Assembly: GCA_964390265.1 (NCBI GenBank)
Contig: CAYMHI010000005.1
Span: forward strand, 1-59,797
Length of the DNA stretch: 59,797 bases
Reading direction: 5' to 3'
Origin: an uncultured Candidatus Saccharibacteria bacterium
Lineage (GTDB): Bacteria > Patescibacteriota > Saccharimonadia > CAILAD01 > BJGX01
Below are positions 3,564-53,850 of the stretch, piece by piece; the stretch's first letter is position 1, and the number at the start of each line of letters is the position of its first letter. The translations under genes and the position numbers were made by a program. Below the pieces are notes generated by a model. That model saw nothing but the letters and a program-made list of their open reading frames with translations. It did no database searches and had not been told where the DNA came from.

Positions 3564-3566
3564 AAT

Positions 3567-3985: not shown

Positions 3986-5743
3986 TTATAGCTTAATTTT
4001 CCCGCTAGCTGATTGCATCTCAAAAAGTTTCTTATACAAGCCGTTATATCTAATGAGCTTGGCATGGTTGCCGCGCTCTACAATGGTGCCTTTTTGCAAC
4101 ACCAATATCTCGTCGGCGTGCATTACAGTGCTAAGCCTGTGAGCGATAATGAGTGCACTGCGGCCCTGCATAAGCTGTTGTAGGCCGTCTTGTACCAAAC
4201 GTTCGCTCTCTGAATCGAGTGCGCTGGTGGCCTCGTCGAGCACAATGAGTTGGGGGTTTTTGAGTATGGCTCGGGCAATTGCCACACGCTGTTTTTGGCC
4301 ACCACTTAGCTTAACTCCGCGTTCACCCACCAAAGTTTTGTAGCCTTTGGGTAGCTCGCGGATAAACTCGTGGGCATGAGCTTGGCGGGCGGCAGCAATT
4401 ATTTGACTCTCAGTAGCATTCGCATTGGCGATTTGCAGATTTTCTAAGATAGTTGCATTAAATAGTGCTACATCTTGCATTACCATACCAATATGTTGGC
4501 GAATAGACTCGGCGGTATAGGCCGAGGCATCTTGTTTGTTAATAGTAATATCGCCCTTAGTAGGCTCGTAAAAACGTAGCAACAACTTGGTAAGGGTAGA
4601 TTTGCCCACACCACTGGGCCCCACCAAGGCCACGGTTTTGCCGGCATCTAATGAAAAACTAATATTTTTGACCGCACCTCTTTTGCCGCCCTTGTAGTCA
4701 AAGGTAACTTTATCAAACTCGATGCTCTGGAGTTGCTCCAGCTCAGCCGCCTCAGGATTGTCATCAAAACCAGGTTTGGTTTCTAAGAATTGAACTAGTC
4801 TGGTTGCTCTAGATTCATTTTGGGCTGTGGCTGTAAGGTATCGGCTAAAAAACATTAAGTTTGACTGTATTTGTTGTAGGTATAGTATGACCAGCAAAAT
4901 TGTTCCGGTCGTCATCTTGCCAGTTGAAAGTGAATACAGCATTATACCAATACTTAAAAATACCACCGTTCTATTTAAGAGCACTCGCCGAGTGATAGAT
5001 TTTGCCCACACATCATTAATATTGTCATTGGCGACCCTACCTTTGTTGATAAGAGTAAAGAGTTTTTGTCGCATAGTTTGTTCAATCGACATCGTTTTGA
5101 TGGTAGCGAAATTAGAGAAACTCTCTGATATGCGACCATTGACTTTTTCATAAGTCTTGTTCGCCACTTTGTATAGTGGCTTTGATTTTTTGTTGGTAGT
5201 AACAAAATCGTATACATATATTATTTCGCTCAAAATAGTAATTACGCCTATTATTGGGCTGTTAATAAAAATAAGAATGGTTGCAAATGTCATAATTGCC
5301 AGAGGTTCGAGTAGATTTTGAGAGGTCATCATTATCCAGCTGGTAAAAGATGATATACCTTGAATTATCTTAGATTGCAATGCTCCGGCCGGCTGACCTT
5401 CAAAGAAGGGGAGTGATAGACCTTGGAGTTTTTTGTATGATTCTTTGTAGATCTCAGCTTCTACGTAGTTGTAAGTTTTGTTGGCGTAGAGCCAATTAGC
5501 CCAGTCTATTAGGCTTAGTAAGGCACCAAATACAATAAGCCCAACTGTTATCTCAACTACAAAAACCACGACTTCAGACGATGTTTTGTTGGCAAGCAGA
5601 GTGGGTGCATTATCTACAATCCATTTAATAAAGTACGGCCACACCGCATTGACTGCACCAAATAATACGCTCAATATTACAATGATGATTAACCGTCGCC
5701 TGGTGTGTGATACCATCGATGCTAGTTTGAGGAGATTTTTCAT
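3986..5743 (-). CDS. ABC exporter, fused TMD-NBD (MsbA/ABCB type)
   Basis: N-terminal TM helices; GPSGVGKS Walker A, LSGGQKQR signature, LDEATSALD Walker B, IAHRLST. Confidence 0.93.
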   Translation of the reverse strand: MKNLLKLASMVSHTRRRLIIIVILSVLFGAVNAVWPYFIKWIVDNAPTLLANKTSSEVVVFVVEITVGLIVFGALLSLIDWANWLYANKTYNYVEAEIYKESYKKLQGLSLPFFEGQPAGALQSKIIQGISSFTSWIMMTSQNLLEPLAIMTFATILIFINSPIIGVITILSEIIYVYDFVTTNKKSKPLYKVANKTYEKVNGRISESFSNFATIKTMSIEQTMRQKLFTLINKGRVANDNINDVWAKSITRRVLLNRTVVFLSIGIMLYSLSTGKMTTGTILLVILYLQQIQSNLMFFSRYLTATAQNESRATRLVQFLETKPGFDDNPEAAELEQLQSIEFDKVTFDYKGGKRGAVKNISFSLDAGKTVALVGPSGVGKSTLTKLLLRFYEPTKGDITINKQDASAYTAESIRQHIGMVMQDVALFNATILENLQIANANATESQIIAAARQAHAHEFIRELPKGYKTLVGERGVKLSGGQKQRVAIARAILKNPQLIVLDEATSALDSESERLVQDGLQQLMQGRSALIIAHRLSTVMHADEILVLQKGTIVERGNHAKLIRYNGLYKKLFEMQSASGKIKL

Positions 5744-5900
5744 TATCTATAATCATAAGCGAAATAAATATATTTGACAAGCCTTGAAATTATGTCTTGA
5801 CTGTGCTATAATGGTAAGCAAATGAGGGTAATAAATATAATTTTGAAATTTAATTATTTACTTCTGGCCAGGAGTAATCGGGGCAGGGTATAATACAGTA

Positions 5901-8012: not shown

Positions 8013-9037
8013 TGAGTCCGCAACAAAGTACCAACAAAAAGTCTTTTTTGCATACACCATCGGCTTATGATCTCACAGTCGCTGAGTTGCTCAAAAAACG
8101 TCGTGAGGAGCTCAAAGAGAGCTTGCAAGATGTAGAGAAAGCCACCCAAATTCGTAAACGTTACCTCGAGCTTATAGAGGCCGGCGACTATGAGCATCTG
8201 CCCGACAATGTCTATGCCCTAGGTTACGTCAAAAGCTATGCAGATCACTTGGGTTTTGATACGGCTCCTATAGTTAATTTGTACAAAAAAGAACGCCAAG
8301 CTTATACTACCTCTAGAAACTCGGGTGAGCTATTAAAAGACGACAAACAAATGGGCTTGCGACCACTGGGTAGGCCAAGTTTTGTACTTAGCTCTAAATC
8401 GCTGATTGTGATTTTTAGTATTGTTTTGTTTGTGACGATTCTAGGCTATTTGGGCTGGCAGGTAGCAGTATTGGCCGCGCCACCCAAAATTAGTCTAAAC
8501 ACTATTCAAGATCAGGTAAGTACCAACTATGTAATAATCTCTGGTCAAACCAACGACGACGCCGATGTTTATATAGACAACTCACCTATACTCATAAACT
8601 CCGATGGTAGTTTTTCTGAAAGAATCGCGCTTTTAGATGGCCAAAATCAAATTACTATTACGGCGCGCAACCAGCTAGGTAAATCTACCACTATTACCAA
8701 AACTGTTACCGCCAAGTTGCCCGAAAGTGTCACTACGACCGGCAAAGTATCACCGGTACCTGTAGACGGAGTAGAGATGCTAGTAAAGATATCAAACCAA
8801 GCTACCTGGATAATTATTGTCGCCGATGGCCAGGATGTATTTAGAGGTACAATGTTGCCAGGCGCAACCCAGCTTTTTAAAGCCAAAAACAGCATTAAGC
8901 TCACTACCGGAAATGCCGGAAACACTCAGGTGTTTGTTAGTAACTCAGCGGTAGCCAATAAAGACTTAGGAATTATTGGTAGATCTGGCGAAGCCAAGAA
9001 CGACCTCGAGTTTAGCAAAGATACGCAGTTTAAATAA
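8012..9037 (+). CDS. rodZ: RodZ-like protein (HTH - TM - Ig-like domain - DUF4115)
   Basis: HTH with IR..YLE.IE.GDY..LP..VY..GYVKSYA..LG, one TM helix, an Ig-like segment and C-terminal TW..I.ADG...GNAG. Lies next to ftsK. Confidence 0.8.
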   Translation: MSPQQSTNKKSFLHTPSAYDLTVAELLKKRREELKESLQDVEKATQIRKRYLELIEAGDYEHLPDNVYALGYVKSYADHLGFDTAPIVNLYKKERQAYTTSRNSGELLKDDKQMGLRPLGRPSFVLSSKSLIVIFSIVLFVTILGYLGWQVAVLAAPPKISLNTIQDQVSTNYVIISGQTNDDADVYIDNSPILINSDGSFSERIALLDGQNQITITARNQLGKSTTITKTVTAKLPESVTTTGKVSPVPVDGVEMLVKISNQATWIIIVADGQDVFRGTMLPGATQLFKAKNSIKLTTGNAGNTQVFVSNSAVANKDLGIIGRSGEAKNDLEFSKDTQFK

Positions 9038-9042
9038 TAAGA

Positions 9043-9537
9043 CTAGTTTACTATTAAGTCTTTAATCCAGACGTTATTTCCCTTAACCTCTACGAACATT
9101 TTATTTTCCTCTGTAGTATTTAGGGCTTTGATGCAACCAAGCAATGTTGGTTGACTAGAGCCGTTAATTGGGAGATCGTAATTAGCAATATTTGTAATTG
9201 TACTGTCGTCTAGGGTTAGCTTAATTGTAGCACCAGTTCGATTGTAGCCACTTACGCAATATTGCATGCCCTTGGCCGTATCAAGTTCTATACTTGCAGA
9301 ATCACCCGATTGAAGGTTGAGATATTTTACTCCCTTTATAGTGGTAAATTCACGAGGACTGTCGGTAATATTGAATCTATCTAATGAATATGTGCCATTT
9401 TTTGTCGTGTTTACTCTTGTCATCGCATAACTTCGGAAAATAATTATGCTACCTATTACGCCAAAAACTGCTACCAGGATCAGTAACTTGTCGTAGCGAA
9501 TGCGCTTTTGTACAGTGTAGGGGGTTCTTTTAGACAT
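9043..9537 (-). CDS. Hypothetical secreted/membrane-anchored protein
   Basis: Basic N-region, hydrophobic helix ending IIIFRSYA, then a beta-rich domain. Confidence 0.65.
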   Translation of the reverse strand: MSKRTPYTVQKRIRYDKLLILVAVFGVIGSIIIFRSYAMTRVNTTKNGTYSLDRFNITDSPREFTTIKGVKYLNLQSGDSASIELDTAKGMQYCVSGYNRTGATIKLTLDDSTITNIANYDLPINGSSQPTLLGCIKALNTTEENKMFVEVKGNNVWIKDLIVN

Positions 9538-9958
9538 GTCTTTTCTTTTTTACATATAGCAAGTCATTAGCAAAAAGTGCCGCCGCGCTACTTAAAAATA
9601 TAAATCCTATACCTGCCATAGCCTTACCAATATTGTTGATTAACAGCAATTGGTCATAGCTTGAGCTACCAAAAGTTCCAAATCTTAATATCCCAACAAT
9701 CATTACTATGTCTATAACGGTCCATATAATATTAGTAAGTATAAGTGGTTTGATATTGTTACTAATGCCGTAAAACAAAGGTATGAGACCAAAAACTAAA
9801 TAAAGTACCCACGTCTGCAGTGATAGCCCGCTGGCTACGTGGGTTTGAAAAAGCTGAATTATCTGGGGAATATTTGTGAGCGGCATAATAAATGCAAACC
9901 CATACATAGCCCAGCCTAGTAGCCGATTGATTATACTATTTTTTGAACTATTATTCAT
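9530..9958 (-). CDS. PQ-loop / SemiSWEET-like membrane protein
   Basis: TNIPQII.LF.T..ASGLS..TW...YG...PL...N pattern plus an extra C-terminal TM helix. Confidence 0.7.
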   Translation of the reverse strand: MNNSSKNSIINRLLGWAMYGFAFIMPLTNIPQIIQLFQTHVASGLSLQTWVLYLVFGLIPLFYGISNNIKPLILTNIIWTVIDIVMIVGILRFGTFGSSSYDQLLLINNIGKAMAGIGFIFLSSAAALFANDLLYVKKKRHV

Positions 9959-9974
9959 AGTATAATTATAACCT

Positions 9975-10190
9975 ATGAAACATAATCATTTTAGCAAATT
10001 GCAAAAAAATGATCGTAAAATTGGTTTAATTTTATTAATTTTGGGTGGTAGTTTGCTTTTAATATCGTTAATATTAAATCTGGTTTTTATACAGGGGACT
10101 GACTTTCGAAAGGAATATAGATTGCGCCAATATCAAGATTGTCTGAATAAAAATTCTATTGCTGAGTGCAATAAAGATTTTGCTATCTAG
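9975..10190 (+). CDS. Small single-pass membrane protein with a Cys pair
   Basis: 71 aa; TM helix followed by YQDC.......EC. Fills the gap between flanking genes. Confidence 0.55.
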   Translation: MKHNHFSKLQKNDRKIGLILLILGGSLLLISLILNLVFIQGTDFRKEYRLRQYQDCLNKNSIAECNKDFAI

Positions 10191-10253
10191 ATTTTCATTG
10201 AGATAGGCATATCATGTACTAAGTTTGGTATACTATATGAAATAGGAGATTTT

Positions 10254-10751
10254 ATGGCTAAAGATTCAAGTTTTGATGTAGTAAGTGAATACGATGTGAG
10301 TGCAATGATAAACGCTTGTGAACAAGCGCAACGCGAAATATCTACACGATATGATTTTCAAGGAACAGGCGCCAAGCTAACATTTGATAGAGATGCGCAC
10401 AAGATAGATATTGAGGCCAATAGCGAGCTCAAGCTAGAAGCTATGGAGGGTGTAATAGAAAACAAATTTATAAAAGCTGGTCTTAGCTTGAAGTTTCTAG
10501 ATAAAACTGGCGAGGTACACGAGAACAATATGATTGCCAGCAAAACATTGCCCTTAGTTCAGGGCTTAGATCAAACCAAGGCCAAGCAAATTACTGCACT
10601 TATTCGCGAAAAGGGCTGGAAAGTTAAAACGCAAATTCAAGGTGAAGCTGTACGTGTAACTGCCCCCAAAAAGGATGATTTGCAGGCAGTGATGGATGCA
10701 CTACGCAGTGCCGATTTTGATTTTCCATTAAGTTTTAATAACTTTCGCTAG
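10254..10751 (+). CDS. yajQ: YajQ family nucleotide (c-di-GMP)-binding protein
   Basis: SFDVVSE, RYDF.G, VKTQIQGEAVRVT..KKDDLQ.V and NNFR motifs. Confidence 0.92.
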   Translation: MAKDSSFDVVSEYDVSAMINACEQAQREISTRYDFQGTGAKLTFDRDAHKIDIEANSELKLEAMEGVIENKFIKAGLSLKFLDKTGEVHENNMIASKTLPLVQGLDQTKAKQITALIREKGWKVKTQIQGEAVRVTAPKKDDLQAVMDALRSADFDFPLSFNNFR

Positions 10752-10824
10752 TCTCTACTTTACAAACTTAATCAAATTAATATATAATCTTGAAAGTTTG
10801 TACCTACCACCGAAAGGCTTAAAT

Positions 10825-11391
10825 GTGTCCAAGGCGAACGATGGGTATATTGCTCCTCAAGCAATGAAGCTACAAGTAGAGCACCTACTTATCAGGCTTG
10901 GTAAGCTTACACCCAATGAAATTGCAGAACTGTTTGATATTAGTCCAGATGAAGGCAAGATTCGGCGTGGTGAAGTCTTTAAAAGCTATATGACCGCCGA
11001 GCTAAATATGGGGTTTAGTTTTACAGCTCCAACTGCTGACTTCCCAACTATGAATGTTTGGCTCAAAACCACTAGTGGTGAGTTTGAGACCAAAATTCGA
11101 ATAGATGCGCCAATTAGTTTGGCAGACTTTCTCAAGCTAGAGGGAGCTCAGCGCAGGCGAGGGGTAATTGGCCTAACTACTCAGCAATCACAAGTATTTC
11201 GGGCTATATGTATTATGCAAAGTACCGAAGGCTCGGCTGAGGAGTTGTATAGAATTTTGTCTGATGATTGGTTGTTTACAATGATCGCCTCTGACGAAAT
11301 AGAGAGAAACAGAGCCAATCTCATGGTAGCTGGAATTTACCCAGACGAACTCAATGAGTGGTATAGAGCGCAAATTGAAGGACGCGACTAG
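10825..11391 (+). CDS. Hypothetical protein (ORFan cassette)
   Basis: ORF open from 10798; likely GTG start at 10825 after GAAAGG. Promoter TTTACA-18-TATAAT at 10759-10788; hairpin plus T-tract at about 11404-11428. Confidence 0.65.
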   Translation: MSKANDGYIAPQAMKLQVEHLLIRLGKLTPNEIAELFDISPDEGKIRRGEVFKSYMTAELNMGFSFTAPTADFPTMNVWLKTTSGEFETKIRIDAPISLADFLKLEGAQRRRGVIGLTTQQSQVFRAICIMQSTEGSAEELYRILSDDWLFTMIASDEIERNRANLMVAGIYPDELNEWYRAQIEGRD

Positions 11392-11484
11392 AAATAAACC
11401 TGGCTTCAGGATATCCCTGGGGCTTTTTACTTACGCTTTACTAAACTAGGGTATAATTGATTTAATAAAAGTATGTAATAGCTG

Positions 11485-11540
11485 TTGACATGTACGCACA
11501 GTGTTCGGTATAGTTAATTTATAAAGAATATAAACCGAAC
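11485..11540 (+). promoter_or_regulatory. recA promoter with candidate repressor boxes
   Basis: TTGACA-18-TATAGT (11485-11514); GTAC-N7-GTTC at 11492-11506; GAAT-N7-GAAC at 11526-11540. Confidence 0.55.
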
Positions 11541-11557
11541 AAAACAAGGAGGGCGAC

Positions 11558-12655
11558 ATGGCTACAGCAACATCAGCACAATCAACTAAAACTGGTAAGG
11601 AGCAATTGGTGAAAGAAACTAAAGATAGCGGAGCGCAAAAAGATAAAAAAAGCGGGCAGTTAAGCGCACAAGAGAAGACATCTCGCCTTAAAGCAGTTGA
11701 CTTGGCGGTAGAACAAATAGAGCGACAATTTGGTCAAGGCTCAATTATGAAATTAGGAGAAGGTATGCAAGTAGCCGTAGAAACTATACCTACCGGTAGC
11801 TTGTCGCTCGATCTTGCATTGGGTAGCGGTATTCCAAAGGGACGTATTGTAGAAATATATGGCCCAGAGTCTAGCGGTAAAACAACCCTTGCTCTTCACA
11901 CTGTAGCTGAGGTGCAAAAAAATGGCGGTCTTGCTGCATTTATAGATGCCGAGCACGCACTCGACCCAGAGTATGCATCTAAAATAGGTGTAAAACTAAA
12001 CGATCTTTTGATATCACAGCCCGACACTGGCGAGCAGGCCTTGGAAATTTGCGAAACCCTAGTACGCTCTAGTGCGGTAGATGTTGTGGTAGTAGACTCT
12101 GTAGCAGCATTGGTACCTCGAGCCGAAATAGAAGGCGAAATGGGTGATAGCCATATGGGCTTGCAAGCCAGACTAATGAGCCAGGCCTTGCGCAAGTTAG
12201 CTGGAGTAATTGCTAAATCTAATACTACTGTTATATTTATAAACCAGCTACGCATGAAGATAGGTGTGATGTTTGGCAACCCCGAGGTAACTGCTGGTGG
12301 TAACGCTCTCAAATATTATGCATCTGTACGGCTAGACATTCGTCGCACCGAACAAATAAAAGATGGCGACAATGTGATAGGCAACCACGTAAAAGTAAAG
12401 GTAGTAAAGAATAAAATTGCTGCACCGTTCAAAATTGCTGAGTTTGACATAATGTATAACGAAGGCATTTCTAAATCTGGTGATATGATAGATTTGGCGG
12501 TCAAGTACGACTTGGTGCAAAAAGCTGGCGCTTGGTATGCCTACAAAGACGAAAAGATTGGTCAGGGTCGCGAAGCTGCCAAGGTATTTTTGCAAGAACA
12601 TCCAAAAGTAATGGTAGAGCTTGAGAAAGCTATCAGAACTGCAGCTGCCGCGTAG
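11558..12655 (+). CDS. recA: Recombinase RecA
   Basis: [38 protein letters not shown] and [17 protein letters not shown] motifs. Confidence 0.99.
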
Positions 12656-21258: not shown

Positions 21259-24200
21259 ATGGATATCAAGAAACCTCAGTCAAATAAATCTGCCACCACA
21301 AAACCTGCATTAGGCGATGCTCAGCCCGCTGTATCACCTCAAAAAACAAACAAGTTTGGTAAAAATCACGCATTAATTATTATTGGCGTAGTTTTTGGCG
21401 TTGTGCTTGTAGCCTTGCTATCGTTTATGTTCTATAGGTACTACACTAGCAAGACATCTCAGGGCGAAGTATCGTCGCAAGAAATAGATAGATATGCCAA
21501 AGGAGTGGTTGAATACAAAGCCCAAAATCCCGACGAAGTAATAGTGGGCGACCCCAAACAAGTTGCTATTGACGATTTGGTTCTCAACAAAGCTCTAAAG
21601 GCCGAGGCTAAAGCTAGCAACAAAGAACTTACCACGGACGAAATTAATACGGTTCTGAAAATACCTAGTGACGTAATTAATACTCAAGCTTATATTGACG
21701 GTGTAGTATCAACTAACGATGCTGGCTTTGTAACTATTACCCGCAAGCTCAATCAAGAATACAGAAGAAAGTTACAAGACACCATTATTGCCAAAAGAAA
21801 GCTACTGTTTTCTACAGTAAGTTTTGATACACCATACAACTACTCGCAAAAGACCGAGGCCGATATAGCCAGAGTGCACCAAGAAGGGCTTGATATTTTA
21901 AAGTCGAAATTTTTACCGCTATATGATAGCAAGGCCAGTATAGAACAAATTGCCAAAGCCTCTGATGTGAATAACATCGATGGTAGTGCTGGAACCCCAC
22001 AGGCGCTACAATTATATTTCACCCAGCTCGTCACCAATGCTCAATTAGTAGATAATTATTCTCTCGAGCAAACACAGGTAGATAATGCTATACCTAATGA
22101 TCTTGTAAAACAGCTTCAGGAGGTTTCGGCTAGCACCAACGATCCAGCCAAAAAAGTAATAACTACGCCCACTGCTTTCTCACAAATAAGAAGCACCAAT
22201 AAAAAAGACTTAGAAGGTGTAGACTACGGCGCACCTGTAAAAGACCTACGCAATACCAACGAGCTAATTGCTAAACTAACCAACCCTGGTGACTACACAC
22301 AGCCATTTGCATCAAAAAGTGGTGCGCATATGATTGTAAGGCTTGAGTCGAAATCTGGTGGCAGCTACAACACCTGGGAAGAATACTTAGCAAAGAGCCG
22401 AGACAAATACTATAAGAACAATCAGATTGTTGCTTCTGATATCAGTAAAATAATACTTTCTAAATTAGGTGTTACAGATTACAAAAAAGTAGCTATGGGG
22501 CTGGTGCATTCCACTGCTGGAGTAGCACATGCCACTCAAACGTGCTCTGGCCATGACTATGCTCTAAATGTTGATGCTTATAAAATCGACAATGCAGGCG
22601 CTTTAACCCAAATATATTCAGTTACCGCAAATATCGCACAAAGCGGTCCTTGCCCCAATACTTTTAACTATAACGGATCTTTACCATTCAACAGGACAGG
22701 TAATTGTATGAATTACCAACCAACATACTCAAACCCACCCTCTAACTCAAATAGTAATCATCGATACATTGGGGCTATTGTGCAGCCTTGGGATCCAGAA
22801 AACGTAAATCAAGATAGTCAATGGGGGCTTAGATACTTCTACCAAAGAACAGATGATACCAATAGAAGCGTAGTTGCAACCTCTACCTTAAGACGTGACG
22901 GTCCTGACGGCAGGCCATTTAGTACCAATGCAACCCTTAACGGAACCCATAGGCTGTACGCTAGTGGTTACAACGACACCGGAGCCGCACCATTTTTGTC
23001 TAAGACATATAGATTATCGGCGAACGTCAATAGCCTGGTAGTGAACGCCCAATCACCACCTGCAGTTACGGATGGCCAGGGCAGGCGCTGGACGCGAGTC
23101 GGCGGTGTTCCAGAAGTTAAAAGCGCTACCATATCTACTAGTTACGATTTTGAATTTAGATATGAGCTGCTGCCTACTTGCCAAATATCAGCTAGCCCAA
23201 GTACTTTACCCAACAACAACAGCTATGCTTCAACCATTACTTGGTCGAGTACCAACGCCGATACCGCTACATCTGCCGATCTAAGTGGTACACTTGCGGT
23301 GAGCGGTAGTCAAGCAGTGACTCTACCCGTAAATAACTCTGGTAGTGCCACCACTAAGACATATAATATGACCGTTACTAGCGTTAGTGGCGATACGTAT
23401 AACTGCTCTACTACTGTAACGGTTAATCCTACAACTACAACTAATCCTCCCGTACCATCGGTAGATATAAAAGCTAATGGTGATGACGGTCCAATTACCC
23501 TAAACCCTGGCGATCCACTTACTCTTAGCTGGACGAGCGGGAATATTAGAACAACGCCAGAGCCAATATGTACGGCACTTGCTTCACCCAGTACCATAAC
23601 CTCGTGGACTGGCAACAAGGCCTCAAGCTCTGGTGGTGAAACCCACACCAATGACCTCTCCGCATCTACTAATAGTATTACCTATTCAATTACCTGTAAT
23701 GGTGTGTCGGGCAGCAACCCAACCACCGCATCAGACTCTGTTACTGTGAGCGTTAATCAGGTGGCATATTACCCATGGCTACAAACCCTTAATGGCGATG
23801 TAGGGAGTTACGGCAAAATACAAGGGCAGAACACCGGCTTAGCTACTAATTTATTGGAAAACCCCGGAGGCAGAAGGTATAACAATGCAGCTGATCGTGG
23901 TGCTGGTTTGGCCGAAGCAACCTATGTAGTAGCAGGTAATGGTGCGGCGGGTACAAACTTCTGTTCTTCTGCACCCAAATACTACACCTTGGGGCAGACA
24001 ATCGCAAACATCAGAAATAGCTGTGCAACCGGAGGTTATGGCCGAGACGGTATTAGTGTAGAAGACCCAATTTCTGCTACAGAGAGTGCGTATAACAACA
24101 ATGGATCCGGGGTCGCAGGAGCTAATACTGCATGTAAACCTTACAATACTAAATCTGTTGCTCCTACAGCTACAATAGACCGAGTAGTCAATCTTAACTG

Positions 24201-35382: not shown

Positions 35383-36417
35383 ATGAAGTCAATAAATTCA
35401 TCAAAGCATAGATTTCCAACAGGTGTAACCTCGCTACTTGTAGTAGTAGGTATTTCGCTAGTCTTTGTGGTTATGGTTACCGGCCTTACAGCTTTGTCTA
35501 TTAGAGAGTCGCGCCAAGCAACCAATACCGATCTATCTAATAGAGCCTTGGCTGCAGCTGTAGCTGCCAACAATGTAGGTTCAGAAATACTCAATACCTA
35601 CCCAACTATTCAGGTTCCTAACTGTCAAGATAGTACACAGGTTGTGAATGGCCCATCTCCACTAACCCCAGATAATTTTAATTCTTTGACAAAACCAGTA
35701 GAAAGCTCTACCACCGACAACAAGGTAGAAATAGTTTGCCGTACCATCACCAGCCAGGGTGATGCCATTGAAGAATCATTAAAACAAAATGAACTATCAC
35801 AAATTTATACCTATGTTCCCAATATCAATATGCCTGAAACAGTCGATCTTAAGTGGGGCAGCTTGTCGAGCAGCCCTTTGCCTGCTGGGTACCAACCATA
35901 TGCAGATAGCGGTTTTACCGACGGTACACCCTCAGCCCTAGAGTTGACGGTATTGTCGTGGAACAGCGGGGTGCTTACTACCCCCAAGAGTCCAACAGAT
36001 GTAGCTAGCGGTCTTACTAGTAGAACTAAGCTATTGGTGCCAGACTCGACTCTTTGTAATGGCACACCTGCCGACGGCTATAAGTGTAAGGTCTCACTAA
36101 CGCTCAACTCTCCAACCGAACCTTTAATTGGCTTAAACACAAACAGAGTAGTTGTACAGCTCAAACCTCGTTACAACAATACAGGTTTTAAAATATCATT
36201 TAAAAACAATTTGGGTAGTACTTTTAAGGTGCAATCATCACGAGCTACCATTGATACAACAGCCAAGGTAGGTAGCCAATACAGAAGAGTAAAAGCCTAC
36301 AAAAACTTGTTTGGTCAGAGCTTTGTAGGAGACGTAGTCTACTCCAACGATAGTATTTGTAAGAATTTAAAAGTTGAAGCAAGTACAGCGCTTATAAGCG
36401 CAAATAATTGTCCTTAA
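35383..36417 (+). CDS. PilX-like minor pilin
   Basis: TG|VTSLLVVV (no Glu5), RESRQATN.DLS.RA.AAA, and C-terminal A.IDTTA..G...RRV.A. Confidence 0.7.
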   Translation: MKSINSSKHRFPTGVTSLLVVVGISLVFVVMVTGLTALSIRESRQATNTDLSNRALAAAVAANNVGSEILNTYPTIQVPNCQDSTQVVNGPSPLTPDNFNSLTKPVESSTTDNKVEIVCRTITSQGDAIEESLKQNELSQIYTYVPNINMPETVDLKWGSLSSSPLPAGYQPYADSGFTDGTPSALELTVLSWNSGVLTTPKSPTDVASGLTSRTKLLVPDSTLCNGTPADGYKCKVSLTLNSPTEPLIGLNTNRVVVQLKPRYNNTGFKISFKNNLGSTFKVQSSRATIDTTAKVGSQYRRVKAYKNLFGQSFVGDVVYSNDSICKNLKVEASTALISANNCP

Positions 36418-37331
36418 TTGGCTTTATTGCCGGAGTGATATTTGAGGTGTGCTTTGTGTAGCTGCGGATCGGTTACGTGTGTGTATACCTGAGTAGTAGC
36501 TATATTAGTATGTCCCAACAAACTCTGCACACTACGTAGGTCGGCGCCATTGGTGAGAAGATCGGTCGCAAAACTATGGCGCAGAGTGTGGGGCGTAACA
36601 TGCTTGGCAATACCGGCTTTTTTGGCGTAGCGCTCTACAATACGCTGTATTGAACGTACTGTAAGTCGAGTATACTCACCGCCGTTAAAGTCGGATTGTG
36701 TGCCACGGTAATGCACAAATAGAGGAGTATAGTCGTCTTGGCGGGCCTCAATGTATTGGGCTAGCACATTGGCAGCCGATTCGCTTACGTACACAGGCCG
36801 GTCTTTTTGTCCCTTACCTCGCACCGAGAACTCGCCAGTTTTAAAATTGAGATCTTTAATATTAAGTGCAGCCAGCTCAGATACCCGCAGGCCAGTAGAG
36901 AAGAGTAGCTCTACTATCGCCCTGTCGCGTAGGCCAATGACGTTGTCGGTATTAATAGCCTCAAATAACCTCACAACTTCATCTTGAGTCAAAAAGCTCA
37001 CTTGCGGGCGCTTGCTAGTGGCTAGTTCTATTTTTTCTGGTGCTAGTGATTCAATATCGCGCCTAGCCAAGTACTTGAGAAAACTACGCATAGCTATGAG
37101 GTGATAATTCTGAGTGGCTTTACCCATAGTGCGGCCATCGTCACCAGTGTAGCGGTTGAGCCACTGGCGCCATTTTGATATTGTTTGGGCATTTATTTTA
37201 GATACTTTTATGTCGTCGCTAAACTCTACAAATCTGTTTAGGTATAGACTATAGTTTTCAATAGTCTTAAGGCTACGGCCTTTTTCTACCTCTAAGTATT
37301 CTAAAAAATCACTCATGTATTCGCTAAACAT
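36414..37331 (-). CDS. Tyrosine recombinase, XerC/XerD family
   Basis: RD.AI.ELLFSTGLRVSEL, GKGQKDR, HTLRHSFAT.LL..GADLRSVQ.LLGH..IATTQVYTH. Start set at the ATG at 37331. Confidence 0.93.
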   Translation of the reverse strand: MFSEYMSDFLEYLEVEKGRSLKTIENYSLYLNRFVEFSDDIKVSKINAQTISKWRQWLNRYTGDDGRTMGKATQNYHLIAMRSFLKYLARRDIESLAPEKIELATSKRPQVSFLTQDEVVRLFEAINTDNVIGLRDRAIVELLFSTGLRVSELAALNIKDLNFKTGEFSVRGKGQKDRPVYVSESAANVLAQYIEARQDDYTPLFVHYRGTQSDFNGGEYTRLTVRSIQRIVERYAKKAGIAKHVTPHTLRHSFATDLLTNGADLRSVQSLLGHTNIATTQVYTHVTDPQLHKAHLKYHSGNKAN

Positions 37332-37390
37332 AACTATATTGTACACGCCGCGTCGCACAATGAGCAAATAATTATTGTTATAATGTAAGG

Positions 37391-38038
37391 ATGAAAATAA
37401 CCATGCCAAATATTTCAAAAGAACTCAATAAAGTCACCGACCTGGCCGCGTGTATTACAGCAGATGCAAAACTTAGTGGAATTTTGGCTCGTAAACAAAC
37501 CCTAAGCGGTGTCGTAGCCAAGTCGCTAACTATTAAAGACACTAGGTTTGAGCAGATCGCTATGACTGGCTGTGAGCTGCGCGACTGCTGGCTAGATGAT
37601 GTTGTTTTTAGTAATTGCGACATTTCTGCCAATAAACTACCCAAGCTGTCTGTAGACCGTGCAGTCTTCAAGTCAACTAGGCTTAGTGGCATACAATTGC
37701 ATGAATCGTTACTCAAAGATGTGAGTTTTGTAGATTGTAAGCTCGATTTGGCAAACTTTCGCTTTGCCAAGCTAAAAAACGTTCTCTTTGATAGCTGTGT
37801 GCTGACAGAGGCCGTCTTTGCTGGTGCGTTATTCAATTATGTATCATTTGATAATTGCGAGCTAGATAAAGTCGACTTTTCAAATACTAAGTGTACCAAA
37901 TTAGATTTGCGAGGTAGTAGTATTGTCGATGTTATTGGTATTTCTTCACTCAAAGGAGCGATTGTATCGCCTGAGCAATTAATAAGTTTAGCACCACAGC
38001 TAGCGGCCGAGATTGGCCTTGTGGTAGAGCAAGATTAG
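37391..38038 (+). CDS. Pentapeptide repeat protein
   Basis: Repeated [AC][DN][FL]xx units (CKLDLANFRFAKLKNVLFDSCVLTEAVFAGA...VDFSNT...DLRGS). Confidence 0.88.
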   Translation: MKITMPNISKELNKVTDLAACITADAKLSGILARKQTLSGVVAKSLTIKDTRFEQIAMTGCELRDCWLDDVVFSNCDISANKLPKLSVDRAVFKSTRLSGIQLHESLLKDVSFVDCKLDLANFRFAKLKNVLFDSCVLTEAVFAGALFNYVSFDNCELDKVDFSNTKCTKLDLRGSSIVDVIGISSLKGAIVSPEQLISLAPQLAAEIGLVVEQD

Positions 38039-50110: not shown

Positions 50111-50187
50111 GGGCTCGTGGTGTAGAGGCCTAACACGCCTCCCTGTCACGGAGGAGATCGCCGGTTCAAATCCGGTCGGGCCCGCCA
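50111..50187 (+). tRNA. tRNA-Asp(GTC)
   Basis: GGGCTCG acceptor stem, CCTCC-CTGTCAC-GGAGG anticodon arm, GGTTCAAATCC T-arm, G73-CCA. Confidence 0.95.
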
Positions 50188-50228
50188 AAGAAAGTGCCTC
50201 AGCAAAGCTGGGGTATTTTCTTTGGCGA
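50183..50228 (+). terminator. Long hairpin overlapping the tRNA-Asp 3' end
   Basis: CGCCAAAGAAAGTGCCTCAGC-AAA-GCTGGGGTATTTTCTTTGGCG. Confidence 0.6.
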
Positions 50229-50387
50229 AGTTTGTTTTGATTTTGACCTTGCTAAGCCGATTAGACAGATGCATAGCATTCTGTCGCTATCCAGTTCGAG
50301 CCTGTATTTTAACTGTTGCAGGGGGAAGGTAGGCGAACAGCAGGTTGGGCTGAATATATTTAAGCTATCTAATAGGGCTTACAATTA

Positions 50388-50416
50388 TTGACTAATTTTA
50401 ATATATACTTTATCAT
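50388..50416 (+). promoter_or_regulatory. sigma70 promoter of ORFan 50451
   Basis: TTGACT-17-TATCAT. Confidence 0.65.
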
Positions 50417-50421
50417 ATTTA

Positions 50422-50463
50422 CGTCCACAGTACCTACTTAAGGAGAACTTTTGCCTACCATCA
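50422..50463 (+). repeat. Shared 42-nt leader/start module, copy 1
   Basis: 37/42 identical to 51528-51569. Confidence 0.85.
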
Positions 50464-50891
50464 TAACGTTGTGTCAGCGAAGCTGGCAACCACCAGACGA
50501 AGGTGTTGTGACTGGCCAAGCAACGACAACTGTCGCGATGACAGAGTGGGTGATGGAACTCACCCCGGGCATCATCAATAGCTACGATGCACGAGATGGT
50601 GTTGATGAGATTGCGCATGATCAGGTATGGGCTTACTATCCACTCATGCACAGACCCACCAACGGTGCCGATGTACTCATTGTGGCTAGGGTTCCAGATG
50701 TTGATCTGAGCTTTGCTGATAGAGAATGTCGCCGCAAGTACTTCAGAGACGCTTACCGCCACGAGCTCAGGTATCAGCTACGGAGCAATAATGATCACCT
50801 AATCATGCCCCATTGGGAGATCGAAGTAATTCCCGAGCTCTCTAGCGGATACGGGCACAACTTCTACCTAGGTGTAGAATACAGCTGGTAA
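50451..50891 (+). CDS. Hypothetical protein (146 aa, ORFan cassette)
   Basis: AAGGAG SD, TTG start, own promoter and 3' hairpin. Confidence 0.7.
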   Translation: MPTIITLCQRSWQPPDEGVVTGQATTTVAMTEWVMELTPGIINSYDARDGVDEIAHDQVWAYYPLMHRPTNGADVLIVARVPDVDLSFADRECRRKYFRDAYRHELRYQLRSNNDHLIMPHWEIEVIPELSSGYGHNFYLGVEYSW

Positions 50892-50898
50892 TTATCAA

Positions 50899-50956
50899 GC
50901 CCCTCCGGGCTCTTCACTCATAGGAGTGGGGAGGTTCCCGCGAGGGGCCTCTTCAT
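50899..50956 (+). repeat. Conserved 3' hairpin element, copy 1
   Basis: GCCCCT..GGGCTC..CACTC-loop-GAGTG..GAG....AGGGGC-CTCTTCAT; homologous to 51382-51440. Confidence 0.8.
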
Positions 50957-51091
50957 ATCTGAAAACATAATGATTGTAACTGTAAGTTGTTAAATATTGA
51001 TTTTAATATAAATTTATGCTAATATAGTGTGCGTTCTCAAAAAGAGAACACTCCTGCCCAACAGACCAACTAGTTAAAGGAGGTTAGCGCA

Positions 51092-51376
51092 GTGAAGCTA
51101 ATCCGACTTCCAGACCCCACGCCCGATATGTGGATTGGTGATTTCACACAGATCATGAGAGCCACTTCAGGCGGTATTTGTGCCACTCCCAAAAACCCTC
51201 AGTTCGGGAACTTCTGGGCCGATCGCCCATGCTCGGTCTTTCAGCACAAATGGCGAACTCTTGCTGTAACTGAAACCGACACTCAGTGGCCCCGTCGAAT
51301 CAACCGGTGCCAGCGTTGCGGGTCACAGGTTCATCAGGACATTACGGTTTCGCCCCCACGGCGAGGCAGTATCTAA
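51092..51376 (+). CDS. Hypothetical protein with a CxxC motif (94 aa, ORFan cassette)
   Basis: AAAGGAGG SD, GTG start, promoter TTGATT-17-TAATAT at 50997-51025. Confidence 0.65.
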   Translation: MKLIRLPDPTPDMWIGDFTQIMRATSGGICATPKNPQFGNFWADRPCSVFQHKWRTLAVTETDTQWPRRINRCQRCGSQVHQDITVSPPRRGSI

Positions 51377-51381
51377 CAACT

Positions 51382-51440
51382 GCCCCTGCGGGCTCAACAC
51401 TCAATTCAAGTGAGTGAAGAGCTCAAAGGGGCTTCTTCAT
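51382..51440 (+). repeat. Conserved 3' hairpin element, copy 2
   Basis: GCCCCTGCGGGCTCAACACTCA-ATTCAAG-TGAGTGAAGAGCTCAAAGGGGC-TTCTTCAT. Confidence 0.8.
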
Positions 51441-51493
51441 GTTTATATTATTTTAAGATAGTTCAGCAATCCGTCTCGATAGCCCGCCCATTA

Positions 51494-51522
51494 TTGACAT
51501 ATATTTGTAATTGCTCTACTAT
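51494..51522 (+). promoter_or_regulatory. sigma70 promoter of ORFan 51557
   Basis: TTGACA-17-TACTAT. Confidence 0.7.
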
Positions 51523-51527
51523 ATGGT

Positions 51528-51569
51528 CGTCCATAGAACCTACTTAGGGAGAACCATTGCCTACCATCA
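51528..51569 (+). repeat. Shared 42-nt leader/start module, copy 2
   Basis: 37/42 identical to 50422-50463. Confidence 0.85.
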
Positions 51570-51913
51570 ACTACGGTAAAATAATCGATAAAGTTCATTT
51601 TCTCGAACCCAACGAAACTGTGTTTTATACTGTATTGAAAAGTGGGCGTCGAGTATTTATTACCTACAACGGTTTCAACAGCAATCCTCTAGATCCCTAT
51701 GAGTCTGATGGAGAACGTATATACTACACCAAGCTGTATGAAGTTTTCGCTCCAGCCAACCTAGAAGACAGCGAGCGGGAGGAAGTGGAGGCACTATTGG
51801 ATCGTTACAAGAAACTCGAGGTTTTTGTTGCTGCGGTTGAGACTAGAGAGCTCAGGCTTGTCGCTCTCGATGCACCTGTTCCGTGGTTGGCAAACTCTCC
51901 GGCCTGTCGCTAG
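51557..51913 (+). CDS. Hypothetical protein (118 aa, ORFan cassette)
   Basis: GGGAG SD, TTG start, 3' hairpin CCCGAGGCTCTA...TAGAGAGCCTCGGG plus T-tract at about 51927-51980. Confidence 0.7.
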   Translation: MPTINYGKIIDKVHFLEPNETVFYTVLKSGRRVFITYNGFNSNPLDPYESDGERIYYTKLYEVFAPANLEDSEREEVEALLDRYKKLEVFVAAVETRELRLVALDAPVPWLANSPACR

Positions 51914-52103
51914 CCCCACAACTGCTCCCGAGGCTCTATATTTGCTTTTAATGCATCTAGAGAGCCTCGGGGGATTTTTTATAACCGCATAGATTGTTTA
52001 TTAGTTGACAATACTATAATAATAGTATAATATCATGTAGTTCTGAGTTTCTCAGAAGATCTTCACATCCAAATACAACCACTCCTAAAGGACGGTGCAT
52101 CAA

Positions 52104-52814
52104 ATGATTGCGTCAACCGAACCTCAATTTCTATACCCGAAGTCCCGCCAGTATCCATTCGATGAGGTATGCGAGCAGATTGTTCGCGCTCTCGAAGAGC
52201 GCGGCTGGGATGTTCCTGGCCTCACCATCAACTTTGGTGTGTATGGTGGTGAAGCAGAGAAATACCGTCTGGTTCGCTCAATTGTTGGCGACGACTTCGT
52301 TTTGCACTTTGGCCGCCCGCAAGGACGACTAGGGCGCTACAACGATACGGCTGCAATCAGCGATATCAAAATTCCTCGTAAAGAGATCCATGTTTACGAG
52401 GATAACTCTGGCCCAAGCCTCTACGTTTACGTTGGCCGAAACTGGGCTAAGGACAAGCAGCGCTTCTTCGGTAGCCTAAAGGTTAACAGCAAGCTTCATG
52501 GCGAGCCTCGTCTGTACCTCTGGTACAAAGGTGGCTGCAACTGCCAGAGCGCCCGAGGTGCGAGCTTTGAGGCCACCGGTTTTTTGACGGCTACCTTAGC
52601 GGGTGACGCAAAGGCTTTGGCAGCAATGAGCCATACCCATCCCGGGCGCCTTGCCCCATTGCTCATCGCCAATAGCGATCTTGGTAGGGAATACTCACCA
52701 AAGGGCAAAGAGCCTGTTAGCTATACAACTGAAGAGGTATTTGCCGAGTTCACTCAGTACCTCAGAGATGCAGTACTGAGGATGATCTTGGCGGCACCTT
52801 TGTTTAGCTCGTAA
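52104..52814 (+). CDS. Hypothetical protein (about 236 aa, ORFan cassette)
   Basis: Promoter TTGACA at 52005; leader hairpin TTCTGAG-TTT-CTCAGAA. ORF open from GTG 52095; ATG 52104 is the likelier start. Confidence 0.75.
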   Translation: MIASTEPQFLYPKSRQYPFDEVCEQIVRALEERGWDVPGLTINFGVYGGEAEKYRLVRSIVGDDFVLHFGRPQGRLGRYNDTAAISDIKIPRKEIHVYEDNSGPSLYVYVGRNWAKDKQRFFGSLKVNSKLHGEPRLYLWYKGGCNCQSARGASFEATGFLTATLAGDAKALAAMSHTHPGRLAPLLIANSDLGREYSPKGKEPVSYTTEEVFAEFTQYLRDAVLRMILAAPLFSS

Positions 52815-52849
52815 GATAGTCACTAGAGGCTGTTTTGAAGGATGTGGCA

Positions 52850-52894
52850 CCGCCCCGTGTTATTAGCACGGGGTGGCCCACCCCAAGATTTCAA
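52850..52894 (+). repeat. GC-rich 3' hairpin with a tail shared with the 38501-38550 element
   Basis: CCGCCCCGTG/CACGGGGTGG stem, then GGCCCACCCCAAGATTTCAA. Confidence 0.55.
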
Positions 52895-53088
52895 ATTATT
52901 TGAAGTTTTAGGTTGGGAGATGATTTTGACTATAGACTACCTGCAGTGCCTTTGTGGGGTCCGTTTATTGCATCTTATTCTTATTAATAATCATAAATAT
53001 TTAACTATTCATATTATATTATTGTATATTTATAAAAAAAGTGATATTATATGTTTCGACCCAATTGTTCCTACCAAGAGAGGCAAAC

Positions 53089-53850
53089 ATGTATATATTG
53101 CTTACAGCTTTTTTGATAACAGTGTGTATAGTAATGCACGAAGCTGGCCATGCATATTGCATGAAGATCCATGGGATACAAATCAAGAGAGCGGGCCTGG
53201 GTTTTGGTCCAGGCATTAAGGTATTCTCAAAAAGGCTAGGTTACCCCATAAAATTTGGGATTATTTTGCTAGGTGCATTCGTAGAACCACAAGATGGAGA
53301 AATGAATCGCCTCAAAACTATGCCATACAGAGTGCAGGCCGAGATTTATGGCGCTGGTGTAATTGCCAATATCGTATTTAGTATGGCTATTGCAGTATCT
53401 CTAAATACGCTAGCCGTTTTACAAGGAGATCTGTCTGGCGGCATTTTCTTAAGTATTGCAATATTTGCAGCACTAGCAGCTTTAGCTTGGTTTAAACGTT
53501 GTTTTTTTTCTATGTACTTGACGCCAGTTATAGGTATGTTATTCCTGGCTTTTCTAGTATATATTCTGTTTTTTAACAGCACGCCAAACAGCTCAGAAGT
53601 GTCAGGTCCTGGCGGTATTGTAGAAATTGTTGGTATGGCCAATTCTTTTGAGTACGGCATGATTATTGCAATGGTCATATCTATCAATATAGCACTCTTC
53701 AATATGTTGCCGTTTGTGCCTCTTGATGGTGGTAGAATATGCTCGGCTCTAGTTCGGCAATACAGCAATAGTATTGCTATTATTTTTGAGGGGGTAAGCC
53801 TGGCAAGCTTCATCGGGCTAATTGCCTACATCTTTATCGTTAATTTCTAA
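53089..53850 (+). CDS. Site-2 protease (M50 family) zinc metalloprotease, no PDZ domain
   Basis: HEAGH (HExxH), GAFVE, AG...N and FNMLPFVPLDGG motifs. Start at ATG 53089 after GAGAGG. Confidence 0.88.
   Translation: MYILLTAFLITVCIVMHEAGHAYCMKIHGIQIKRAGLGFGPGIKVFSKRLGYPIKFGIILLGAFVEPQDGEMNRLKTMPYRVQAEIYGAGVIANIVFSMAIAVSLNTLAVLQGDLSGGIFLSIAIFAALAALAWFKRCFFSMYLTPVIGMLFLAFLVYILFFNSTPNSSEVSGPGGIVEIVGMANSFEYGMIIAMVISINIALFNMLPFVPLDGGRICSALVRQYSNSIAIIFEGVSLASFIGLIAYIFIVNF

Follow-up and report, generated by a model that had tools for sequence, protein, structure and literature searches.

Introduction

Arbiol et al. (2010; PMC2839356) and Comeau et al. (2014; PMC4122927) described promoter-early stem-loop (PeSL) sequences in T4-type phages. 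Each unites a sigma70 promoter and a G/C stem-loop that acts as a terminator. PeSL lie beside orphan genes in hyperplastic regions of the phage genome, and they recombine among themselves (PMC2839356). We found an arrangement that seems to resemble PeSL in its way of working in a stretch of bacterial DNA, the whole of a 59.8-kb contig (C5) that is called the window here. It belongs to a genome (G000) of 0.90 Mb in 27 contigs, with 42% G+C and a completeness of 98.8%, which is that of a member of the Saccharibacteria by its size, its gene content and its relatives. Saccharibacteria are ultra-small epibionts with reduced genomes. The elements in question are two hairpins, e1 and e2, each of which stands just behind an orphan gene and is followed by a tail of eight nucleotides. 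Our preferred reading, with a probability of about 0.6, is that they are intrinsic terminators and 3'-protecting hairpins of self-contained orphan-gene cassettes, and that they may also act as homology patches for shuffling. Termination, protection of the RNA and a role in recombination are what we infer from the sequence to be most likely.

As with PeSL, a conserved intergenic stem-loop and sigma70-type promoter modules stand beside orphan genes that are unrelated to one another and lie in a variable region, and the modules would provide each gene with its own expression and with insulation. Gains, losses and replacements of DNA border on the modules in PeSL; here one cassette indel abuts a tail. 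The hairpin, the tail, a spacer box and a -35/-10 promoter are conserved together in three other genomes of the class (four copies in G124, and in G035 and G134) and are found in diverged form behind e2. The likeness is incomplete, as e1 is followed by a promoter of another family. The setting is also different, being a cellular Saccharibacteria chromosome and not a phage, and scans of viral contigs with two patterns found no copy of the element. Hairpin and promoter can occur apart from each other here, as is seen at e1 and at open reading frame (ORF) 51557, which has a 5' module and an ordinary terminator. The hairpin exceeds that of PeSL in length and has three helices and a tail that is conserved; recombination between copies and mini-circles are features of PeSL. 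We do not claim membership of the PeSL, and the analogy would extend to the way of working only.

Terminators with suboptimal, interrupted U-tracts work with the help of NusG or NusA in Bacillus subtilis (PMC8060035) and in mycobacteria (PMC3993855). The hairpins of the window resemble them in having a GC-rich stem and an imperfect U-rich tract in the sense orientation 3' of a stop codon, in a genome with no detectable Rho. They differ in that their sequence is conserved across families and behind unrelated genes, in that the stem is unusually long (44-56 nt) and in that the tail is fixed as YUCUUCAU; their role as terminators is a predicted one.

Three further systems invite comparison. Integron attC sites are likewise imperfect palindromes right after the ORFs of cassettes, with two conserved helices and a variable tip, in variable arrays on one strand; here IntI and the R''/R' boxes are both absent, promoters are part of the cassettes, the element is missing from some of them and the wobble bias points to an RNA. 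Phage morons, which consist of a promoter, a gene and a terminator, are self-contained units with a G+C content above that of the backbone, as are the two units of the window (0.51 and 0.55 against 0.42); morons lack shared conserved flanks, whereas the flanks are the conserved part here, and no phage context or phage homologues were found. The early genes of phage T7 are followed, one after another, by homologous irregular RNase III hairpins of about 20 bp that leave a protective 3' stem. Those sites lie within one long transcript, whereas here each gene has its own promoter and cleavage is hypothetical.

Results

The two hairpins and the genes that precede them are as follows.

50451-50891, + strand: orphan gene F1, 146 amino acids, G+C 0.51
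50899-50956, + strand: e1 element, GCCCCTCCGGGCTCTTCACTCA...AGGGGCCTCTTCAT
50899-50948, + strand: hairpin e1 ('type A'), from folding and covariance-model scores of 83.7 and 76.1 bits
Helices of e1: P1 50899-50905/50942-50948; P2 50906-50909/50937-50940; P3 50910-50919/50924-50933; loop ATAG
50949-50956, + strand: tail of e1, CTCTTCAT, a pyrimidine-rich degenerate U-tract
51092-51376, + strand: orphan gene F2, 94 amino acids with a CxxC motif, G+C 0.55
51382-51440, + strand: e2 element, GCCCCTGCGGGCTCAACACTCA...AGGGGCTTCTTCAT
51382-51432, + strand: hairpin e2 ('type B' base), from folding and covariance-model scores of 66.7 and 64.9 bits
Helices of e2: P1 51382-51387/51427-51432; P2 51390-51395/51419-51424; P3 51398-51403/51411-51416; loop ATTCAAG
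51433-51440, + strand: tail of e2, TTCTTCAT

F1 and F2 are unrelated by BLASTP. Both end in a TAA stop codon, which lies 7 nt upstream of e1 in the case of F1 and 5 nt upstream of e2 in the case of F2. An earlier reading of the letters of the window (the original prediction) had noted stem blocks shared behind two unrelated ORFs, beginning within 8 nt of a stop, and its coordinates, its motifs and its counts were all reproduced: e1 and e2 have the same base at 19 of 22 positions of the 5' block and at 13 of 14 of the 3' block. Its view that the internal-loop positions are kept holds loosely only, as the 3' arms are built differently, with a GUU bulge and a 1-nt bulge in e1 and two symmetric 2x2 internal loops in e2. 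We distinguish the 3' arms as type A (...GAGGAGGTTCCCGCGAGGGGCC..., as in e1) and type B (...TGAAGAGCCCAAGGGGGCT..., as in e2). The second hairpin mixes the tip helix of the first (CACTCA/TGAGTG) with a type-B base, and runs of exact identity between the two reach only 6-7 nt.

A 21-nt pattern from the 5' side, allowed up to 3 mismatches, matched the window three times (e1, e2 and the reverse strand of the near-palindromic e2) and matched none of 100 shuffles of the window. Each element folds as a single long hairpin, at -37.9 kcal/mol for e1 (z = -4.7) and -30.7 kcal/mol for e2 (z = -5.2), and none of 200 shuffles folded as stably. Among the 3' regions of the 926 ORFs of the genome, the two hairpins rank 2nd and 11th in stability. 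They are the sole copies of the family in the whole 0.90-Mb genome.

The two elements are part of a family of structured RNAs that occurs throughout the Saccharimonadia, its members having a length of some 50 nt to which a tail of 8 nt is added. With a first covariance model, made from 8 sequences, eight more genomes of the order proved to have copies. A second model (R2), with 21 members, was used for a class-wide survey of 151 Saccharimonadia genomes from 98 genera and found the element in 34 of the genomes and 26 of the genera, in many families, with up to seven copies per genome. Further copies, which the original prediction had called for, thus exist once a covariance model is used. Among the sampled genomes of the window's own family the element occurs in this genome only, which fits the distribution of F1 itself: that gene is present in 3 of 401 genomes of the class, spread over three families. 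Same-strand clusters are found as well, with three copies in 1.4 kb behind tRNA-His in G035, two copies in G055 and seven copies in 6.7 kb downstream of tRNA-Asp, on one strand, in G124.

The first-round set consisted of 21 members in the analysis of folds and 23 in that of ORF placement; the statistics of tail, placement and strand bias were taken over 43 members. All 21 share the same anatomy: P1, an internal loop, P2, a loop or bulge, a variable P3 and an unpaired tail. P1, GCCCC(Y)/(R)GGGGC, and P2, GGGCTC/GAGCCC, are conserved, the bases of the internal loops vary, and the P3 tip changes freely (CACTC/GAGTG, CGTAC/GTACG, TCGC/GCGA, TTTACG/CGTAAA and others), with a stem length of 44-56 nt in the family. 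In an alignment that was fitted to the model, which favours support, 86% of the cells were paired, compared with 78% in shuffles and 43-63% in slid registers; there were double-sided changes in 14 of 19 pairs, and 0 of 500 shuffles attained the observed values. The wholesale replacement of P3 is nonetheless visible by eye. G-U pairs number 65 on the sense strand and 34 on the antisense strand, A-C mismatches 4 and 29, and the sense fold is the more stable one in 31 of the 43 members (Wilcoxon p = 5e-4, a generous value given that the members are related). Such an enrichment of G-U pairs on the sense strand is expected of a function in RNA rather than in DNA.

The family appears to be undescribed: nothing relevant was found in the literature searched, and the Rfam models that pass their gathering score in the window account for three tRNAs and nothing else, with no match at E <= 10 in 50850-51600. 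Pattern searches added little. An exact-pattern scan of 185,579 reference genomes gave 20 matches, which is the number expected by chance, and none of them forms the hairpin; a family-level scan (3 mismatches) gave matches at chance level only. In a metagenome scan we found one true extra copy and two chance matches. The true copy (contig L053) follows a third, unrelated ORF and has a wholly different tip helix. Two patterns found no match in viral contigs, and two looser ones gave 3 and 78 loci, where 50 places score 20-33 bits with the model. These were rejected as members: their scores lie below those of all confident members except two weak ones, and most are short GC hairpins in high-GC contigs that the pattern itself had chosen. 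We also set aside the repeat GAAGTCGGCTTYGCYGCCCCTKCGGGCTCCGCACTCCAAGG, which matched the 5'-arm pattern by chance in four contigs (L019, L020, L030 and L035) of Victivallis vadensis DSM 14823 and belongs to an unrelated repeat family of that genome. Neither PHROG, the scans of viral contigs nor a tblastn search with both ORFs of 50,697 phage records, which gave no match, revealed a link to phages.

Placement behind genes is strict. All 23 members of the first-round set have a same-strand ORF that ends -3 to +30 nt before the start of the model, and in 39 of the 43 members the distance from the end of a same-strand open frame to the stem is -2 to +30 nt, with a median of 8. The proteins encoded ahead of the hairpin fall into at least 14 unrelated families, among them small Cys-rich, membrane-anchored and featureless proteins. 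The copies lie in sense, just after orphan genes; whether they would stand at the 3' ends of variable ORFans was a check that the original prediction had suggested. The stop codons ahead of the hairpin are mixed (TAG 16, TGA 13, TAA 10); a reading as a selenocysteine insertion sequence (SECIS) or other recoding signal is excluded, since all three are in use.

The consensus of the tail is Y-T-Y-T-T-C-R-T, with G almost absent at positions 1-6 and a family mean of 4.3 U in the first 8 positions. An intrinsic terminator has a U-rich tract of 7-9 nt right behind its stem; the tails of e1 and e2 (CUCUUCAU and UUCUUCAU) have 4-5 U in 8, with a longest run of 2, and distant members have true U-tracts (CTTTTTTATTTC, CATTTTCATTTT and CCTATTTATTTT). 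The earlier statement that there is no T-tract is correct as to runs of T, but the tail is rich in pyrimidines: it has 4-5 U, and G is missing from positions 1 to 6. To call the elements poor intrinsic terminators, as was done then, is too strong: the tail, a U-tract interrupted by C, shades into true U-tracts in distant members, there is no detectable Rho and there is no alternative terminator. The RNA-binding domain of Rho (PF07497) was not detected in the 98.8% complete genome, and no other terminator candidate lies between F1 or F2 and the promoters that follow them. Neighbouring units use ordinary T-tract terminators, one of which is listed here.

51557-51913, + strand: orphan ORF 51557, 118 amino acids, with the shared 5' module and an ordinary terminator
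51927-51977, + strand: canonical intrinsic terminator of ORF 51557, a 22-bp stem followed by GGATTTTTT

T-tract terminators are thus used within the same array, and the hairpin family constitutes a second, non-canonical class of terminator-like element there. Eight canonical terminators of this genome end in TTTTCATTT. The word TCAT is not a general mark of terminator tails in the genome, with 13 cases compared with 16-36 for permuted words. A short minus-strand ORF that would begin at the ATG complementary to the tail was rejected, as neither its length nor its sequence is conserved.

The hairpins are better conserved than the genes that they follow. All F1 relatives at loci L039-L050 (71-77% amino-acid identity; homologues in metagenome contigs range over 71-98%) have a hairpin right 3' of the stop codon, and in three comparisons of the F1 unit similarity ends 0-19 nt past the tail. 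Between F1 orthologues the ORFs are 72-77% identical and third codon positions 38-60% (in L039 and L043, whose lengths permit the comparison), the hairpin with its tail is 88-95% identical and the next 60 nt are 42-52% identical; conservation of the hairpin exceeds that of the coding sequence. Within one genome, hairpins after unrelated ORFs are 85-92% identical (G035 a/c, G124 8217/9583, L043 a/b), as against 66% for the hairpins of orthologous F1 genes in two families, and genome-specific variants are common to the copies of a genome, for example GCCCCC/GGGGGC in G035. A relative of F2 in L043 (53% protein identity) is likewise followed by a family hairpin, which is of type A there and has a type-B base in the window, and an F1 homologue in G158 has no hairpin. 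The likeness within genomes, the difference in type behind F2 and the absence in G158 imply that the hairpins undergo concerted evolution and that their exchange does not follow that of the genes.

Beyond the hairpin, the box that is conserved in G124, G035 and G134 is about 45 nt long (AAGTAAGTTCTAACCTCATCCGCTACGGCCCGCC) and leads into a -35/-10 promoter (ATTGCAATTATT...). A diverged copy of this spacer-plus-promoter module follows e2; the promoter downstream of e1 belongs to another family and forms no composite module. In the array of G124, at least six copies of the module occur, the first directly behind tRNA-Asp.

51441-51530, + strand: spacer box and promoter 3' of e2, with -35 TTGACA at 51494-51499 and -10 TACTAT at 51517-51522, 17 nt apart
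50997-51025, + strand: promoter of ORF 51092 (F2), TTGATT-17-TAATAT, near-identical to a promoter in G042 (L179)
L188 (G124:C22), module copies: 3195-3241, 4478-4537, 6319-6372, 7274-7337, 8290-8331, 8906-8968
L199 (G079:C2), module copies: 2751-2816, 4615-4650

G124 and G079 belong to different genera, and in their arrays only tRNA-Asp, the hairpins and the intergenic modules align; the ORFs do not. Two otherwise unrelated ORFs of L188 (5329-5841 and 9043-9579) are alike in their last 25 or so residues (GQxSRPxxAPHAxDPDGETFGxTL, 76% identity), and from this likeness module exchange may reach into the 3' ends of coding sequences.

Turnover in the region of the cassettes is strong. None of the six other genomes of the genus matches the window in how long the interval from tRNA-Asp to the M50 peptidase gene (53041-53850) is or in what it contains. 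Arrays that bear the hairpin are headed by tRNA-Asp also in G056, G124 and G079; an orphan-gene hotspot lies downstream of tRNA-Asp(gtc) in at least three families of the class, and the array of G035 follows tRNA-His.

tRNA-Asp hotspots: window 50111-53040; L080 (G056) 7476-8212; L188 (G124) 3137-11906; L199 (G079) 2006-4700

At the window's site we found no duplicated tRNA 3' end that would serve as an att site flanking an island, and no integrase gene was seen there. In L043, cassettes of F1 and F2 occur in another order, with other genes between them. That locus and L045, two strains that are 99.4% identical, differ by an inverted unit of 510 bp (L043 3751-4260 against L045 5082-5103), which has a promoter (TTGACT-17-TATCAT), one or two small ORFs (38 and 67 amino acids), and a family-like three-helix hairpin with the tail UUUGCACGUCUG. 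This unit sits tail-to-tail, 5 nt past the resident tail, and replaces 22-28 nt; there is no target duplication. The variation of the hotspot in every genome of the genus, the rearranged order in L043 and the 510-bp indel are the cassette turnover that synteny had been expected to reveal.

Other features of the array

The remaining parts of the array lie in a chromosomal neighbourhood with tRNAs and genes for a peptidyl-prolyl isomerase (PPIase), the M50 peptidase and ribosomal protein L25.

50111-50187, + strand: tRNA-Asp(gtc), found by ARAGORN and Rfam; the variable orphan-gene array begins just downstream
50384-50463, + strand: 5' module copy 1, with promoter, 5' untranslated region, Shine-Dalgarno (SD) sequence and the first four codons of ORF 50451 (F1)
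50388-50416, + strand: promoter in 5' module copy 1, TTGACT-17-TATCAT, from a promoter scan
51490-51569, + strand: 5' module copy 2, before ORF 51557

Every cassette unit examined in the window's array has its own near-consensus promoter, and the orphan genes have a G+C content of 0.46-0.55 against 0.42 for the genome. F1 has no match in Pfam, PHROG or NCBIfam, and AlphaFold2 run on five sequences of its family gave no usable model (predicted local distance difference test score, pLDDT, 33). F2 belongs to no Pfam or NCBIfam family and has only two weak PHROG matches; a search for its homologues found nothing, and its relative in L043 was located through DNA comparison instead. The two copies of the 5' module are 76% identical over 80 nt. 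The four first codons that F1 and ORF 51557 share encode MPTI, with which F1 relatives elsewhere, including that of G035, also begin, and to judge from this the 5' end of ORF 51557 seems to have been acquired from F1. The next unit, ORF 52095, ends in a hairpin outside the family. A 20-bp hairpin at 50183-50227, which begins within the 3' end of tRNA-Asp and has a T-rich stretch behind it, may be a terminator or a processing signal of the tRNA gene. On another contig of this genome (C3:21829-22330), a small gene (21908-22267, 119 amino acids) has a promoter that matches the 5' module of F1 with 81% identity across 42 nt and a strong terminator ending in CTTTCATTTATG; by these parts the gene is probably another cassette built in this way.

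Discussion

We propose that each unit would consist of its own sigma70-type promoter, an SD sequence, an ORF and then the hairpin as its 3' end. The sense transcript is predicted to fold into a three-helix hairpin in which the conserved P1 and P2 carry a free P3 tip, and this hairpin, with the C-interrupted U-tract YUCUUCAU, would stop RNA polymerase without Rho, perhaps assisted by NusA or NusG as at other suboptimal terminators. The same hairpin would then shield the 3' end of the mRNA from exonucleases and insulate the unit from its neighbours. Because the same 60 nt or so stand behind many unrelated genes, the copies would exchange sequence among themselves and would probably be homology patches that let units enter, leave, replace one another or change their order in the hotspots beside tRNA genes. 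Among the three functions that the original prediction had offered, an RNA stability or processing element comes closest to this proposal; a single-stranded DNA recombination site and an HUH/REP-type substrate (REP, repetitive extragenic palindrome) find no support.

Several observations weigh against the proposal. The tail has at most two consecutive U in 25 of the 43 members, and mycobacterial RNA polymerase did not terminate in vitro at hairpins without U-tracts (PMC3993855). The stop codon is close to the stem (median 8 nt), and terminators so placed in E. coli are repressed by the terminating ribosome (PMC4824070). The sequences of P1, P2 and the tail are conserved beyond the needs of a stem and a U-tract. 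In particular, the 3' arm keeps TGAAGAG, which is complementary to the tail, even where it is unpaired in the main hairpin, and plain termination leaves this conservation unexplained. As to recombination, exact identity of 6-7 nt is too short for RecA-type recombination between e1 and e2, the F1 homologue of G158 does without a hairpin, and the 510-bp indel is cassette turnover and not hairpin-to-hairpin exchange.

The conserved complementarity of the 3' arm and the tail leads to the first of the alternatives, which involves two further features.

50921-50961, + strand: alternative hairpin H2 of e1, 3' arm with tail, -21.4 kcal/mol when the 5' arm is blocked; it excludes the main hairpin
51414-51440, + strand: alternative hairpin H2 of e2, GUGAAGAGCUC/GGGGCUUCUUCAU, -12.4 kcal/mol

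Here the element would be a translation-sensing switch in which the 5' arm acts as strand A, the 3' arm as strand B and the tail as A': a ribosome that stops 0-15 nt upstream would cover A and let B pair again with the tail, forming H2. Whether the orphan gene ahead is being translated would in this way affect termination, the passage of transcription into the following unit, or decay. It could also be an addition to a terminator. When the first 17 nt were blocked (3 flanking nucleotides and 14 of the 5' arm), most of the 21 members refolded to the B:tail form, with constrained folds of -12 to -27 kcal/mol, and in L041 this form rivals the main fold. For e2 the whole constrained fold has -14.1 kcal/mol with a remnant of P3 kept, and the core of its H2 was flagged by the terminator scan. 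The pairing of B with its own tail averages -15.7 kcal/mol, compared with -7.9 +/- 2.8 for shuffled tails, and it beats swapped tails at p = 0.0012, a value that overstates the support given that the members are related; moreover, a purine-rich strand pairs readily with any pyrimidine-rich tail once G-U pairs are allowed. In L081 there is a matched change (CGT in the tail with ACG in B, instead of CAT and ATG), but two members (L075 10370 and L075 9890) have changes that are not compensated. In type B the conserved ATGAAGAGCC pairs with GGCTTCTTCAT, and the TGAA of B is partly unpaired in the main hairpin. At the median gap of 8 nt a terminating ribosome would cover the 5' arm, and ribosomes do repress terminators close to stop codons (PMC4824070); about one fifth of the members have gaps of 20-30 nt, however, which put A outside the terminating ribosome. 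The main hairpin is more stable by 10-20 kcal/mol and forms first, and no U-tract follows H2. We regard a switch of this kind as unlikely.

The conservation of P1, P2 and tail beyond structural need would also suit an RNA site that is recognised by a protein and is not a terminator, whether a hairpin for RNase III processing and protection or the binding site of a regulator of the orphan set. The stem, irregular, interrupted by internal loops and some 20-22 bp long, is like those of the early RNase III sites of T7, and an RNase III is encoded in the genome (C1:91249-91641). Set against this are internal-loop bases that vary, a promoter in each unit that leaves no polycistronic precursor to cut, a family that grades into hairpins with ordinary U-tracts, and the lack of a co-occurring candidate for the partner protein; a site of this sort strikes us as improbable.

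Bolder still, and unlikely, is the idea that the element is the joint of a dedicated Saccharibacteria cassette system, either as an H1/H2 switch set by the ribosome or as the substrate of a recombinase (the lone Xer), which would make the array at tRNA-Asp a promoter-bearing analogue of an integron. The second version comes near to a reading as an attC-like site of folded DNA on which a site-specific recombinase, such as the single Xer, would move cassettes. The two conserved helices and variable tip recall the R box, the L box and the variable terminal structure of attC, same-strand arrays reach seven hairpins in 7 kb, turnover is strong, one strain-level indel begins 5 nt past the tail, and an Xer gene lies 9-14 kb away in 4 of 5 genomes checked, but that proximity is ordinary shared synteny. 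Each of these five genomes has one PF00589 protein (in G000 at 36414-37418 of the window, - strand), and the one of G000, its sole tyrosine recombinase, scores 158.9 bits against a TIGR02249 cut-off of 265 and fits XerC, XerD and XerA. RYYYAAC (R'') and GTTRRRY (R') boxes are absent, the ends being GCCCC(T) and (A)GGGGC followed by YTCTTCAT, and e2 has no asymmetric extrahelical bases. The cassettes carry promoters, the adjacent ones (ORF 51557 and ORF 52095) lack the family hairpin, and the upstream edge of the F1 unit ranges over 50378-50452 across comparisons; the enrichment of G-U pairs on the sense strand fits RNA and not DNA. With a single tyrosine recombinase in each of the five genomes, which in G000 is of Xer type and below the cut-off for integron integrases, and no R''/R' boxes, neither the suggested co-occurrence of a recombinase nor the single-stranded recombination site was borne out, and we consider a DNA site very unlikely. 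A selfish mobile repeat that lands behind genes, resembling REP sequences with their REP-associated tyrosine transposases (RAYT), miniature inverted-repeat transposable elements (MITE) or IS200 ends, is less credible again: the element is a dispersed palindrome that is patchy among genomes, but there are only 2 copies here and at most 7 elsewhere, where REP sequences number tens to hundreds, no Y1 transposase (PF01797) or RAYT in the genome, no terminal inverted repeats, target duplications or GTAG head, no copies seen inside genes or in antisense and no co-occurring transposase, and random insertion would not give a strict sense orientation at <= 30 nt from the stop in 39 of 43 members, so that the HUH/REP-type substrate also lacks support.

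Tails of a related kind were met in viruses. Many IMG/VR loci (L094, L096, L117, L119, L150, L152 and others), on viral contigs of 61-70% GC, have short GC hairpins followed by CTTCTTCATG(T/C)C, which sits just upstream of an SD sequence and a start codon; 12 of 13 matches have an extra G after CAT that the selecting pattern did not demand. A tail of the CTTCTTCATG type may be common on the terminators of actinophage-like genomes, and this could be relevant in that Saccharibacteria live on Actinobacteria.

As a terminator and 3'-protecting hairpin, the element is of an ordinary functional kind; its interest is as the constant joint of shuffled orphan-gene cassettes. The motif marks the 3' ends of such cassettes across the class and can be used to find them. 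The constant parts of these variable, tRNA-adjacent arrays would be terminator and promoter modules and not genes, an architecture of gene shuffling that has so far been documented for T4-type phages. The family also lends itself to the study of intrinsic termination at a U-tract interrupted by C, in a lineage where Rho is not detectable, and, if the pairing of the 3' arm with the tail is functional, translation of the full-length gene would be tied to the fate of the end of its own transcript. The acquisition and expression of strain-specific genes in Saccharibacteria are poorly understood, and such genes probably serve the interaction of these bacteria with their hosts.

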